A DNA stretch of 64,000 nucleotides from sequence record OK335775.1. One strand, written 5' to 3'. Every line of letters begins with the position of its first letter. Positions within the stretch are counted from its first letter, which is position 1. The stretch comes from Escherichia phage PSD2002. Positions 31,324 to 36,415 of the stretch are shown one piece after another. A model generated the notes under the pieces. It did no database searches. It was not told the DNA's origin and worked only from the letters and a program-made list of their open reading frames with translations. The position numbers were made by a program, and so were the translations under genes.

Positions 31324-31599
31324 ATGACTAAAATTGAAATTGTTTCCGAAATTGCTACTATTGTTTCCATTTTGATTAAAACGGATTGTGAAGACATCAT
31401 GCAACGTCGTGATGAGTTTATTGCCTTTTTGAATGAGTTGGGTATTCGTAATGAACATGGAAAGGAACTTAATGGTTTGTCTTATAACAAATTATTTAAG
31501 TCATTAACTGAAGATGAACGTGACACTCTTATTGAGCAATTTAATGAAGGGTATGAAGATATACACCGTTACTTAATGATGTATACCTCCAATTTCTAA
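31324..31599 (+). CDS. asiA: AsiA anti-sigma70 factor
   Basis: 91 aa; ...VSILIK...FIAFLNE...NEGYEDIHRYLMMYT matches T4 AsiA as recalled; convergent with holin t. Confidence 0.85.
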   Translation: MTKIEIVSEIATIVSILIKTDCEDIMQRRDEFIAFLNELGIRNEHGKELNGLSYNKLFKSLTEDERDTLIEQFNEGYEDIHRYLMMYTSNF

Positions 31600-32249
31600 C
31601 GTGTTCGACCTAATGTCCTCCCAGCCTGACCGCACATAGACGAAAGTCTAGGAAATCCTAAATCCGGTTTGATATCATACCAGTACAACGATATCGAGCC
31701 GGCGTAGACGTTATCCAAATTAAAAAACGGGCACGAAAACATATACGTGAATTGTGTTTTCTTCTTTGTAGGAAGGAATACAGTTTCGGTACTTGATTCA
31801 AAATAGTTCCCGTTAACTCCCGCCATATATTCTACTGACGTTTTGTCAATTGGAAACCCTCCCGTATTTTTTGCGTCTACCGTTTCCGGTAATTTACCCT
31901 CGTAAGCAACCATATCCACAAAATAATTCATGTTGGTTGGTCTAAAAGAATATATTGCTGTGAAGTCTGCGCCTGAAGAAGAATGCACTATTCGGAGCTG
32001 CTCGATAGCCGCAATTTTAAATCTATTGTCCTGGTCTTGTCTAATCATTTCAGTATAAGAGGCATAAGTAGTCTCTTTATAAAAGTTTAGAATATACTCG
32101 CCTTTATACCAAACCAATGCCATAAAGAACAATAATACCACGACTAGGACCCGGGAAAAAACTACTTTCCCGGAAGAAGTATCTTTAAAAATTCTATCAA
32201 GAAGTCCAAAAAGTAGGTCTGATAATGATATTCCTACTTTTGGTTCCAT
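31596..32249 (-). CDS. t: Holin T
   Basis: 217 aa; single N-terminal TM segment with large periplasmic domain; size and position (after gene 38) as T4 t; late promoter upstream. Confidence 0.85.
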   Translation of the reverse strand: MEPKVGISLSDLLFGLLDRIFKDTSSGKVVFSRVLVVVLLFFMALVWYKGEYILNFYKETTYASYTEMIRQDQDNRFKIAAIEQLRIVHSSSGADFTAIYSFRPTNMNYFVDMVAYEGKLPETVDAKNTGGFPIDKTSVEYMAGVNGNYFESSTETVFLPTKKKTQFTYMFSCPFFNLDNVYAGSISLYWYDIKPDLGFPRLSSMCGQAGRTLGRTR

Positions 32250-32267: not shown

Positions 32268-32275
32268 TATTTATA
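32268..32275 (-). promoter_or_regulatory. Late promoter TATAAATA for holin t
   Basis: TATAAATA on - strand followed by SD AGGAG and the t start codon. Confidence 0.6.
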
Positions 32276-32286
32276 GCGCTTATGTA

Positions 32287-33081
32287 CTATAGCCAGGAAC
32301 CGTAGATAACACCTGTATTATGCCAAGTAGGAGAACTTCCAGCAACAGCAGCTCCTGCGCCGCCACCAGCGCCGACTTTTAGAACTTTACCACCATCAGA
32401 CCATGCATTCTGACCTGCGCCGCCAGCATCGCCACCCTGACCAGAGTGAGCATTTCCGTATTGATAACCACCTCCTGGACTATCCAAAGAAGCTCCGCCA
32501 CCTGAATATCCACCACCACCGCCTGGGCCAAATGGTCTTCCTCCACCACCGCCAATATCTTGCCAGTTTGCACCAGAGTGAGGACGATAAGCGATACCAC
32601 CGCCGCCACCGCCACCGCCGCAGATAACCCCACCATTATTAATTCTTAAACGACCGCCAATATCATTTACAATACAAGTTCCACCCAATTGGCCGTTGCC
32701 ATCGCCGCCCGAGTGGGTCCATCCACCTTGACCACCTCGGCCCCATATATGAACCCCACCACCAATATTCAATTGAACATATTCGTTTGGAGTATCCCCA
32801 TACATAAAGAACAATGGAACATCACGGGTATAAGATACTAATGTATCTGTAAGATTAAACACAATAGGCGCACTACCGGCTTCAAAGCAACGGTCGCGGA
32901 ACCATTGCCCATTAAAGTTATGGTCCCCACCTAAAGTATGAATTACTTCAACAGACCGACCGTTCATATTACTCATCCAAAACGGAATACCCATTCTCAA
33001 TCGCTGGGCGGCGCCGCCCATCCAATTTTGTCCTGTATTAGCTACTGCAGACGATCCTACCCACGGTCCTCCAACTGCCAT
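32287..33081 (-). CDS. 38: Gp38 tail-fibre adhesin, T2-type with glycine-rich motifs
   Basis: 264 aa from ATG 33081 (SD GGAGG; the ORF-track start is a TTG 12 nt upstream); conserved N-terminal domain and C-terminal polyglycine tracts (GGGGGGGG, GGGGG) separating variable segments. Confidence 0.85.
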
Positions 33082-33112
33082 ATAAACCTCCAAGGGGCCT
33101 AAGCCCCTCTTA

Positions 33113-36100
33113 TTATTTTAACAATGATTTAATTAGTGCTTTAAGTTCTTCAATCTCTGATTTCAATTCTGCTATTTCTGCAGTGTGCTCATTGATTGCA
33201 GCTGTATTTAAACCAATTACACCGTTATAGTTTAAACGAAGTAAAGCTTCACCGTCAGGGTCGCCTTCAACCAATTCAGGTAAAATAGCTTGAACTTCTT
33301 GAGCAATTAAACCAGCATTAGGTTCCCATTTCTGATTACCTTCTTCATCCAGGCCACGTTTCTGCATATAAGTGTAACCGTTAATTTTTGAAAGTGTTTG
33401 TGAAGCATTTTCAAATTTAACAAGGTCTTTTTTAACACGAATATCAGAACGAACATAAACATCACGAACAAATGTCGAATAGCTATCGTTTGCCTGAACT
33501 AAATGGCCGTGAGAAATAATTGCTCTGCCAACTTCTGTCCAAAAAGATCCATTTGAATCCCAAAGGCCCGGATGAGATTGATACATTGTACCCCAGCTTG
33601 CAATATGTACACTATTAGCAACCATATTGATTCGGCCGTCACCGCCGTGTGATAATCCTGTGTCGTTATCACCAATAGCAATACTAGGAGAGCCTAATCC
33701 ATTAACAGTACCAACACCAATTGCAGGAGTCTGGACTAAAGACGGGGCGTAAAATAAACCACTAGAGTGGAATTCGAAAATACCTACAGGACCGTTGCCA
33801 TTTTCCTGGTTACCAACACGAATTATAGCTTGTCCCCATGTTTGTGGAGTACGACGCATACCGAAATCAACACCTGATATGTATCCTTCGTTAGTAATAC
33901 CAGATTTTCCTTTGATAATCGGATAATAACTATCATTACCGACGTTGCCAAAATCCACAAATACAGGAGCTTCTAAACCCCATTGGTCACCCCATGCACC
34001 AGATTGATGAGCCACCCATTGTGCAGCCTTTATATAAAGTCGGTCCCTATTAAAATAAAAAGTATCCGACCCCTGAGGAGCTAAACCAACTTCTCCACTA
34101 TTATGAATATTAACGCCTGAATTAGTTTGGAAACTATAAAACGATAAGTTGTTATCAGCGCCGCCATTACCAACATACCAGTTATTAACGCCTGCTTTTT
34201 GTCCTTTCACATAACCAGATTCGGTTGCAGCACTGTTAATAACAATAGCATCCGAGTTTGCATTAAGAGTTAAGCGGCCTGTCATTGTGTCGCCTTCTTT
34301 AGAAACACGGCTATAGACAGCACCAAGAAGATTGGTTACATCACCGGCAGAAGTAAACGTTTTCCAGATATCAGACCAGATGTTACCATTTTTGGCAATA
34401 GTAGCTTCACCACCGCCAACCTGCACGTTATCCGGGAAATTAACTGTACCATCAGCATTAAATCTTGATGTATGACCTTGGGTCCCGTCTTCTTTGTAAT
34501 GATGCAAAACAAAAGTCCCGGAATTAATTTCAGTACCTAAAGACCAAACAGCTTTTCCTTGTAAGAATTTCTGCTTAACAATAGGATAATATTTACTTAC
34601 CGCGTCATCATCAATTTCTTGGAAAACAGGAGCTGCTTGTGCATATTGAATATCATAACCACCCGCACCGGCGCCGTGTCCACCGAATTTAATATAACCG
34701 TTTGCTGCAAAAGAAGCATAACTCAAATCTAAGTCAGGAATAACTACCTTACCATTACTTAAATCTATACTTAAAGGACGAAGTGGCCCTATATCGCCGG
34801 TTTTACCTTCACCAAAGGCGGTAGGAATAATATGTAGGCTTGTTTCTGAACGGCGGAAAATGGCGCCGTAGTCATCATTCCAAATTCTAAGAGCATTGAC
34901 AGCATTACCAGCAATAGTGCCGGAGGCGTTAACTTCTTTACCGACATTTATGCTTTCGTTTACATTCATGCCACCATTTAAATGGGCTTCAACTTTGTCA
35001 TCGGTTTTGCGCTGAATATACCACATCCAACTAGTGGCATCAGATATTTCCATTACGTTTTTGCGGTCACCAGCGACATTAGTAAAGGTATTACCCCAAA
35101 CGCTGATAGTCATATTATCAACTGAACTACTTCCTGTTGTATTTCCTCTGAACATAAGAGTCGAAGCGTTGTTGCGGCCATCAATATTAACCGAACCACC
35201 AACAACATCAATATTACCAGGAGTAACTAACAAACCACCAGCGGTGTTAACGTTTGTAGTACCCTTACCACGGAAATAGTGGTGATAATTGCCACCTTGA
35301 TAATAACCTAAAAGAGTTTGACCGTCACCATACGCGTTATTATCATGATAAGTGACAACCGTCGCCAAAGCATAGTTTTCCGACGGAGGAGTGGTTAAAT
35401 CGGTACCGTTTACAGAATAACCCATAACCATTTTTCTAAGACTGGTGGTTTCTGCAGGGCCGTACAGGAAAGTTCTCGTGCCGTTATTAACGCTGAAATA
35501 ATATCCATCCTGATGCCATTTTAACCCGGTGTCATTATCGCCAAGAGCAATTGAAGCCGTTCCTAATTCAGAATATCCTTTAGAGTCGCCTGGGGTGCCT
35601 ACAGAAATAGAATGACCAGCTTTCAATCCGCCAGACCAGGTAAACGACCAAAGATAAGCTTCTAAGCCATCTCCAGCATACCAGGTTATTCCATCACTAT
35701 CTTTAACTTCATGGAATATACGTGCTCCTACAGCATTTCGCATAACACGGAGGCGGTTAATAGCCGTTTCGCTTTCTGTCATTGGAGTGTTATTTGCTAA
35801 TGAATAGATATCATAATCGCCCGTCTTCTTCCCATTTGTAATAACTTTATCGGTCAAAATCTGAGGAGACGAAATAGATTTCCATGCTGATACTTCAGGT
35901 GAAGTAAATAGGCCACTGCCTGAAAATGCATAAGTGCTTTCGCTTGCAGTAGAATAATCCTGTACGCGAATATTAACTACTTGGTTAGTTGCTCCTGCAT
36001 TATTAGGAGAAAAAATAATACCACGCTCACGGTCATCGCCATCAAAGAAACGAAGATGAGAAGTTGAGGCACTCTTAGAAATAAGTTCACCACCGTGGGT

Positions 36101-36415
36101 CATAATCTGCCCGGCGGCAATAATATCGCGAGTTACTCGAGCAATACCATTGAGATTGAAATCACCAATTTGAGTAAATACACCATTAAGTGTATAATCA
36201 CCGGTTTGATTGTAGTTACCGGTATGAATAACATTGCCGTCAATATTACCACCTTTAGCAAAGCCAAGGTCAATGATGGCACCGGTGTCGTCTTTAGTAA
36301 AAAGTAAACGGTCCTTTAAGTTAATAGCCAGTTCGCCTTCAGCCAACTGGGCTGGTGCCGGACGTACACCAGCTACTTTACTTCTTTTAAATTGGATTTG
36401 CTTTAAAGTAGCCAT
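33113..36415 (-). CDS. 37: Gp37 long tail fibre distal subunit with C-terminal intramolecular chaperone domain
   Basis: 1100 aa; N-terminus [13 protein letters not shown] matches T4 gp37; C-terminal ~120 aa resemble the autoproteolytic intramolecular chaperone of T2-type fibres. Confidence 0.95.

Follow-up and report, generated by a model that had tools for sequence, protein, structure and literature searches.

Within the gp38 adhesin family of T2/T6-like Straboviridae, T2 uses OmpF/FadL as its receptors and T6 uses Tsx. The gp38 of phage S16, whose receptor is Salmonella OmpC, has been crystallised on the tip of gp37 (6F45, chain D). The receptor-binding domain of PP01 gp38 is available as a fusion to GFP (9V85), and five of its loops have been assigned to receptor recognition: A (W119-I124), B (Q161-V170), C (N184-W189), D (N204-Y209) and E (N225-S231) (PP01 crystal-structure paper). 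PP01 recognises OmpC of O157. The specificity domain of gp38 has been described as five glycine-rich motifs and four hypervariable segments (HVS) (Trojet et al. 2011), and a single loop substitution, Q206L in the gp38 of RB68, switches the receptor from OmpF to OmpW.

Several members of the family depend on OmpA. For LHE83, resistance has been traced to a frameshift in ompA, deletion of ompA from BL21 lowers adsorption and complementation restores it, and antiserum to its gp38 (GP213) blocks adsorption (LHE83 paper). Adsorption of LHE83 to BL21 without ompA is reduced by only about 50%, which means that a further receptor exists even for this phage, the closest characterised relative of the one studied here. 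For FL08 and AV119, plating falls by at least 3 logs on MG1655 lacking ompA; both adhesins have been classed as 'type 1' OmpA adhesins, for which in-silico analysis predicts OmpA contacts at R165-A170, R181, D217 and R262 (FL08 numbering; Lutz et al. 2025, PMC12032242). Bp7 uses LamB and OmpC, according to the LHE83 paper.

Escherichia phage PSD2002 (OK335775.1) is a lytic, WG01-like myovirus from chicken-farm faeces that was isolated on the STEC O157:H7 strain EDL933 (PSD2002 paper), and it is a member of a published three-phage therapeutic cocktail against STEC O157:H7. The PSD2002 paper does not mention receptors or tail fibres. Here we analyse gene 38 and its surroundings within a window of 64,000 nucleotides from this genome, following an initial annotation that had been made from the letters of the sequence and had proposed a gp38 adhesin with glycine-delimited variable segments.

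Results

The gene 37-gene 38 locus of PSD2002

Gene 38, identified from its reading frame and translation together with Pfam and PHROG matches, lies at 32287..33081 on the minus strand, the strand of every feature described below. It runs from an ATG at 33081 to a stop codon at 32289..32287 and encodes 264 amino acids, in agreement with the coordinates and length first proposed, for which no strand had been stated. A Shine-Dalgarno sequence, GGAGG (33087..33091), can be read from the sequence 6 nt 5' of the ATG. The program-made list of open reading frames instead places the start at a TTG further upstream (33093), for a product of 268 amino acids. The protein is the deposited PSD2002_0065 (100% identity over 264 residues), which is labelled 'hypothetical protein' in OK335775.1.

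Upstream lies gene 37 (33113..36415), which encodes the distal subunit of the long tail fibre, the 1100-residue partner that carries gp38 (PHROG 1699, E=0; Pfam Peptidase_S74, Gp34_trimer and gp37_trimer), and the gene downstream of gene 38 encodes holin t (31596..32249). The order g37-g38-t on one shared strand is the canonical arrangement of the family, and it is found in 11 of the 15 reference loci. Of the others, Bp7 has the same order with t otherwise labelled, the t homologues of WG01 and T6 are labelled 'hypothetical protein', and the FL34 locus stops short of t; LQ5 is unannotated. A hairpin in the g37-g38 intergenic region (-17.3 kcal/mol, z = -1.82) is not significant alone, as 11 of 200 shuffled sequences fold equally well.

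The 20 kb surrounding the locus are 93-96% identical to the Dhakavirus genomes WG01, PSD9, E33, LQ5, LHE83, Bp7 and QL01. A megablast search of the phage nucleotide collection returned no identical gene 38; the best matches were PSD9 (91.3%) and LHE83 (95.3% over the 3' 675 nt). It was a protein search that retrieved the exact counterpart, PSD2002_0065.

A gp38 adhesin with an S16-type fibre tip

Family searches assign the gene 38 product to the receptor-recognising gp38 adhesins of T2/T6-like Straboviridae. Residues 45-264 match Pfam GP38 (PF05268; 1.2e-62, 212 bits against a cut-off of 25) and residues 1-39 match Gp38_N (PF21721; 2e-20, 72.9 bits, cut-off 25), with no other Pfam family at E<=0.01, and the protein matches PHROG 2056 ('tail fiber protein; host specificity') at 4e-101. 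Only two PDB entries match by sequence, 9V85 (6e-70) and, over the full length, chain D of 6F45 (1e-53).

An AlphaFold2 model built on an alignment of 84 sequences has a mean pLDDT of 86.9 and a pTM of 0.80. In a Foldseek search of the PDB, this model retrieved 9V85 (E 2.5e-26, target-normalised TM 0.88) and 6F45_D (E 2.1e-24, TM 0.82) and nothing else of significance, the next match having E>3. The predicted fold is consistent with the attachment domain, beta-helix and polyglycine-II sandwich of 6F45 and 9V85. Confidence is high for residues 114-245, to which DSSP assigns few helices or strands, as it would for a polyglycine-II lattice. The first 40 or so residues are of low confidence, as would be expected where folding takes place on the gp37 trimer, as in 6F45.

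The S16 and PP01 proteins provide the structural frame for this comparison. S16 gp38 aligns over its full length at 48-49% identity and shares the three-domain architecture, and its phage has a homologous gp37 tip and chaperone domain; it differs from the PSD2002 protein in its shorter loops, and S16 belongs to another genus, Gelderlandvirus. PP01 gp38 is 61% identical and has a nearly identical beta-helix and glycine lattice, whereas its loops A-E are unrelated in sequence and in length.

The partner protein carries a C-terminal intramolecular chaperone domain (residues 990-1100; 33116..33448), marked by Peptidase_S74 (Pfam, 9.1e-12, residues 990-1049), by an SDIRVK motif that begins at residue 990 and by a match to 6F45_A. 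The last 195 residues of gp37 align to this S16 gp37 tip construct at 2.6e-46, and a search of PDB sequences with the last 300 residues returned nothing but 6F45_A at E<=0.01. By analogy, the chaperone domain is predicted to be released as a 111-residue fragment by auto-cleavage at about Ser990. The gp37 tip thus appears to be of the S16/T2 type rather than a T4 needle tip.

These results uphold the initial annotation in its assignment of a T2-type gp38 adhesin, to which the Pfam, PHROG and PDB sequence matches and a predicted fold resembling only 9V85 and 6F45 all lend support, and in its recognition of the gp37 chaperone domain. Its further proposal, that the phage uses the T2 mode of receptor recognition, is supported over the T4 mode by that domain together with the S16-type tip. 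It had also named a lack of similarity to T2-family gp38 as the outcome that would count against it; alignment shows similarity at 42% identity to T2 gp38 and 59% to T6 gp38. The T2 and T6 proteins share with gp38 of PSD2002 the family, the gene position and a layout in which glycine-rich motifs and hypervariable segments take turns, but at these identities they have different loops.

Conserved framework and variable loops of gp38

Conservation along gp38 was profiled with 84 homologues that are 43-93% identical to the query, using column entropy smoothed over 5 residues. The alignment contains 35 invariant columns, mostly glycines, and all of them are preserved in PSD2002. The invariant glycines form the motifs GRGG.G (114-119), GG (133-134), GGGGG (156-160) and GG.P.G (180-185), together with G203 and G223. 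Between these motifs lie five segments of high entropy, at residues 123-131, 163-176, 188-200, 205-214 and 223-240, and a HMMER alignment to 9V85 matches them one-to-one with the receptor-recognition loops A-E of PP01. This is the arrangement described by Trojet et al. for the specificity domain, with conserved glycine-rich motifs set between hypervariable segments. In their nomenclature, we infer, HVS3 spans both loop C and loop D.

The N-terminal attachment module comprises codons 1-47 (32941..33081), an allele of the WG01 type by its identity to WG01 and a match to Gp38_N, and would bind the gp37 tip. It is followed by a conserved core (codons 48-113; 32743..32940), which column entropy, the beta strands of the model and alignment to 9V85 and 6F45 mark as a beta-helix domain by homology. 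The first glycine-rich motif, GRGGQGG (codons 114-120; 32722..32742), in which G114, R115, G116, G117 and G119 are invariant among the 84 homologues, leads into variable loop A (HVS1; codons 121-132; 32686..32721), a stretch of 12 residues defined by the high entropy of residues 123-131 and the alignment to PP01 loop A. Motif 2 is a run of eight glycines (codons 155-162; 32596..32619) with G156-G160 invariant, and beyond it lies loop B (HVS2; codons 163-176; 32554..32595), 14 residues with an R-x-H-S-G-A motif, a mean entropy of 2.02 bits and a counterpart in PP01 loop B.

Motif 3, GGGGGRPFG (codons 177-185; 32527..32553), has G180, G181, P183 and G185 invariant and G177, G178, R182 and F184 conserved in at least 90% of the sequences. 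The two parts of HVS3 follow: loop C (codons 186-200; 32482..32526), whose 15 residues include a G5 and a G3 run and which is delimited by entropy and by alignment to PP01 loop C, and loop D (codons 206-214; 32440..32466), YQYGNAHSG, with a mean entropy of 2.05 bits over residues 205-214 and aligned to PP01 loop D. Motif 4, QGGDAGGAG (codons 215-223; 32413..32439), in which G223 is invariant and G216, G217 and G220 are conserved in at least 90%, separates these from loop E (HVS4; codons 224-240; 32362..32412), 17 residues that align to PP01 loop E, with a mean entropy of 1.90 bits over residues 223-240. The final 24 residues (codons 241-264; 32290..32361) hold motif 5 and the strands conserved at the C-terminus; G243, A245, V246, G248, P251, W253, G257, I259, Y260 and G261 are nearly invariant here.

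The glycine tracts quoted in the initial annotation are all present: a G8 run at residues 155-162, G5 runs at 177-181 and 187-191 and a G3 run at 194-196. Further G3 runs occur at 107-109, 203-205 and 239-241, and glycine accounts for 58 of the 154 residues from 111 to 264, against 16 of the 110 in the N-terminal part. The idea that such tracts delimit the variable segments holds insofar as the segments found from the 84 sequences coincide with PP01 loops A-E. It is less exact for the runs at 187-191 and 194-196, which lie partly inside a variable segment; G189-G191 and G195-G196 occupy variable columns, so that the poly-glycine runs are not identical to the conserved motifs. The description of a conserved N-terminal half likewise needs refinement: residues 48-118 are indeed the most conserved part of the protein (mean column entropy 0.84 bits), whereas residues 1-47 (0.96 bits) are an exchangeable module, of which the homologues show at least two types, MAVxGPWVG... 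and MAVVGxPGWIG....

Two residues of PSD2002 gp38 are private. Position 79 is aspartate, where 82 of the 84 homologues have glycine, and L132, at the base of loop A, stands in place of tryptophan or glutamine and is unique among the 84.

Recombination within gene 38

The two ends of gp38 have different closest relatives. Over residues 1-47, the protein has 100% identity to WG01 and 96% to PSD9 but no more than 60-62% to LHE83 and LQ5; over residues 111-264, LHE83 (98%) and LQ5 (99%) exceed WG01 (86%). To map the transition, we used the sites at which the WG01 and LHE83 nucleotides differ, together with sliding identity. From 32944 upward, covering codons 1-46 of gene 38 and the last 370 nt or so of gene 37, 173 informative sites match WG01 in two runs that are separated by one site matching neither parent; from 32938 down to 32276, the agreement is overwhelmingly with LHE83. 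These sites and the sliding identity place a recombination breakpoint at 32938..32944, in codons 46-48, with WG01-like sequence on its 5' side and LHE83/LQ5-like sequence on its 3' side, and the crossover coincides with the boundary between the Pfam domains Gp38_N and GP38. A second junction falls within nearly identical sequence around the stop codon of gene 38 and the start of t, and at 32548-32599 (codons 161-178) a short patch that takes in the poly-glycine motif and loop B resembles WG01, PSD9 and LQ5.

Gene 38 of PSD2002 is thus a natural recombinant, which joins a WG01-type gp37 tip and codons 1-46 to codons 48-264 of the LHE83/LQ5 type. As the gp37 tip and the gp38 N-terminus are both of the WG01 type and the remainder is of the LHE83 type, the docking pair has been kept together and the receptor-binding module exchanged. 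This pattern fits both the model of modular exchange and the crosses reported by Trojet et al. 2011, as well as the published swap between CM8 and EV240.

The relationship to LHE83 and LQ5 follows the same division. Both proteins carry the loop set of PSD2002, and GP213 of LHE83 is 91% identical overall, but they begin with the other type of N-terminal module (MAVVGIPGWIG...) and their gp37 tips are different, with 47-75% nucleotide identity. Outside that module, the substitutions from PSD2002 to LHE83/LQ5 are G52A, F66L, D79G, L132W, P167V (LHE83 only) and S201G, of which L132W, P167V and S201G lie in or beside the loops.

Predicted receptor

Comparison with characterised adhesins, suggested at the outset as a route to the receptor, points to the type 1 OmpA class through the identity of gp38 to FL08, AV119 and LHE83. 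The loop set of PSD2002 falls, by its sequence, into this 'type 1' OmpA-binding class, and the true relatives of the protein are the OmpA-type adhesins of Dhakavirus and Tequatrovirus phages. FL08 and AV119 belong to the latter genus and have accumulated 28-29 substitutions relative to PSD2002 after residue 47, yet they are 86-88% identical overall, have the same N-terminal type, and share the RxHSGA motif of loop B, D218 and a KVLKVG insertion in loop E. Over residues 111-264 the identity to FL08 and AV119 is 87-88%, against 44-51% to T2, T6, Bp7, FL12, FL34 and FL44; by receptor type, the values are 47% for FL12 (type 2 OmpA), 50-51% for FL44 and T6 (Tsx) and 47% for FL34 (OmpF).

Of the contacts predicted in silico for type 1 adhesins, seven are conserved in PSD2002, as R166, H168, S169, G170, A171, R182 and D218, and two are changed: V166 of FL08 corresponds to P167, as it also does in E33, LQ5, KIT03 and WG01, and R262 corresponds to W263, since the C-terminal tail reads GSWL in PSD2002 and GPRV in FL08 and AV119.

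Two further comparators were considered and rejected. The OmpC type of PP01 and AR1 was considered since the host is O157:H7, and all five loops of PSD2002 gp38 differ from those of PP01. The classical OmpA phage M1 carries a gp38 (P0068) that is nearer to the T6/FL12 group.

OmpA is accordingly our prediction for the receptor of PSD2002 gp38, and we regard it as probable. The principal alternative is that the adhesin acts on another receptor (OmpC, Tsx, OmpF/FadL or LPS), or on OmpA together with a second one. PSD2002 was isolated on O157:H7 EDL933, a host on which phages of the PP01/AR1 type use OmpC, but loops B-E are wholly unlike those of PP01, as where an 11-residue stretch of the PSD2002 protein faces QA-NNWAGKYV. 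Likewise, the adhesins of the Tsx, OmpF and LamB/OmpC types (T6, FL44, FL34, T2 and Bp7) remain at the low identities given above over residues 111-264, whereas OmpA-dependent LHE83 and its twin LQ5 reach 98-99% and OmpA-dependent FL08 and AV119 reach 87-88%. In favour of this alternative are the half of adsorption that LHE83 retains on BL21 lacking ompA, the capacity of one-residue changes to switch porins, and the private D79 and L132 along with the loop differences from LHE83. We have discounted our estimate for OmpA for these same reasons, namely the residual adsorption, the one-residue switches, and the loop-adjacent differences and private residues. On balance, a receptor other than OmpA, or one in addition to it, seems rather unlikely, and OmpA remains the preferred reading.

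A more specific proposal concerns the two private residues. In the newly recombined WG01/LQ5-type mosaic, G79D and the replacement of W/Q132 by leucine could conceivably give PSD2002 a changed or wider receptor range than LHE83, FL08 and AV119 have, although we consider this improbable. If it were so, the adhesin might turn to a different porin or reach OmpA more readily beneath the O157 O-antigen, and the PSD2002 allele would be a natural host-range variant and not merely another type 1 OmpA adhesin.

Discussion

The gene 38 product of PSD2002 is an already known kind of protein whose exact sequence is public, and it is an ordinary, intact copy. With high confidence, we regard it as the monomeric receptor-recognising adhesin that caps the Dhakavirus long tail fibre, and the mechanism that we propose for it draws on the S16 and PP01 structures and on T2/T6 genetics, from which docking, cleavage and receptor are all inferred. 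In this mechanism, the S74-type chaperone domain at the C-terminus of gp37 would assist trimerisation and would then be removed by auto-cleavage at about Ser990, and a single gp38 would use residues 1-47, its N-terminal module, to dock on the tip of gp37 that is left exposed. In the remainder of gp38, a beta-helix would be joined by a polyglycine-II sandwich made up of the invariant glycine motifs, and the loops at about residues 121-132, 163-176, 186-200, 206-214 and 224-240 would project from the distal face. Loops A-E would there contact the extracellular loops of an outer-membrane beta-barrel protein, most likely OmpA.

A different function has been attached to the name gp38 in T4, where the protein is a non-structural chaperone, and the legacy label 'distal long tail fiber assembly catalyst' survives on homologues in the E33, wV7, UPEC07 and Bp7 records. 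Apart from such labels, nothing speaks for this function in PSD2002: Pfam returns the adhesin families GP38 and Gp38_N only, the protein matches over its full length an S16 adhesin that was crystallised on the gp37 tip, and a note in the Bp7 record itself calls the gp38 of the T2 subfamily the unrelated adhesin. Moreover, an intramolecular chaperone domain is already built into gp37, the last 300 residues of which match 6F45_A alone among PDB sequences. We therefore consider a T4-type chaperone highly improbable. That the reading frame is a chance glycine-rich one, or a decayed or frameshifted copy of the kind suggested by the aberrant, frameshift-like C-termini of the Bp7 and FL34 database homologues, can for practical purposes be dismissed, given E-values of 1e-62 to 1e-101, a frame that is intact through the conserved C-terminal PTWxNxGxIYG and keeps every invariant column of the 84 sequences, and a source phage that is viable and replicates lytically.

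The adhesin reading, with OmpA as the probable receptor, bears on the use of PSD2002 in therapy. Re-annotation of the gene and the OmpA prediction make the design of the PSD2002 cocktail testable. A partner in this cocktail, the myovirus PSD2001, has PP01-like gp38 loops, and its gp38 is, judged by these loops, probably of the OmpC type. In that case each phage would attack through a receptor of its own, in keeping with the low rates of resistance that have been reported.

For the evolution of the family, the PSD2002 gene 38 locus provides a clean natural case of modular exchange at a domain boundary, as conceived by Trojet et al. 2011.

Transcription and translation of gene 38

Downstream of gene 38, which encodes the gp38 adhesin, a T4-type late-promoter sequence motif (TATAAATA, window 32268-32275, minus strand) sits inside the 37-nt spacer between the gene 38 stop codon and the start of holin gene t. 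Since no T4-type late-promoter motif was present upstream of gene 38, the sequence suggests that genes 37 and 38 are co-transcribed. Folding also predicted a GC-rich hairpin with a 7-bp stem (GAGGGGC-UUAG-GCCCCUU; 33092-33109, minus strand), placed between the gene 37 stop codon (33115..33113) and the gene 38 Shine-Dalgarno sequence (33091..33087). This hairpin has a minimum free energy of -17.3 kcal/mol but is not significant by itself (z = -1.82; 11 of 200 shuffles fold equally well), and its stretch is 100% identical to that of phage WG01 in 60-nt identity bins. It could modulate gene 38 translation or stabilise the gene 37 message.

Variation within gp38 and its relatives

Within the receptor-binding module of gene 38, informative sites delimit a micro-mosaic patch (window 32548-32599, codons 161-178), in which the window agrees with phages WG01, PSD9 and LQ5 at 6 informative sites, and the surrounding module is LHE83-like. 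The patch gives residue 167 of the variable receptor loop B as proline, not valine (P167, not V167), and poly-G-coding repeats lie on both of its flanks. Such repeats are proposed recombination sites.

Two substitutions, both on the minus strand, are private to this gp38. Position 79 (window 32845-32847) is Asp in the window and Gly in 82 of the 84 homologues; L132 (32686-32688) is found in no other of the 84 sequences, where A, Q, N or W occurs instead. The deposited PSD2002 protein likewise has D79 and L132; these residues may reflect either adaptation of the host range or mistakes in sequencing. Among the relatives, alignment showed that the annotated gp38 proteins of Bp7 (L015:859-1650) and FL34 (L010:692-1504) lack the conserved C-terminal motif GxAVxGSxPTWxNVGxIYG and end in unrelated sequence. 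Judged from sequence, these look like frameshifts in the last ~40 codons, whether sequencing errors or real changes.

Annotation of T2-type adhesins and probable receptors of the cocktail

Labels for the gp38 adhesin disagree among the public records of E33 (L003), wV7 (H23), UPEC07 (H22), Bp7 (L015) and LHE83 (L001); among the names used are 'distal long tail fiber assembly catalyst', 'tail protein and peptidase' and 'hypothetical protein'. On T2-type adhesins, the T4 chaperone label is wrong and has spread by propagation.

PSD2002 shares a cocktail with its partner PSD2001, also a myovirus. The loops of PSD2001 gp38 (P0062) are similar to those of the OmpC-binding PP01 adhesin (YSMANNWAGKYV versus YSQANNWAGKYV in PP01; ANPGHGYST versus ANPGAGYST). 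Therefore, the two myoviruses of the cocktail probably use differing receptors, OmpC for PSD2001 and OmpA for PSD2002.
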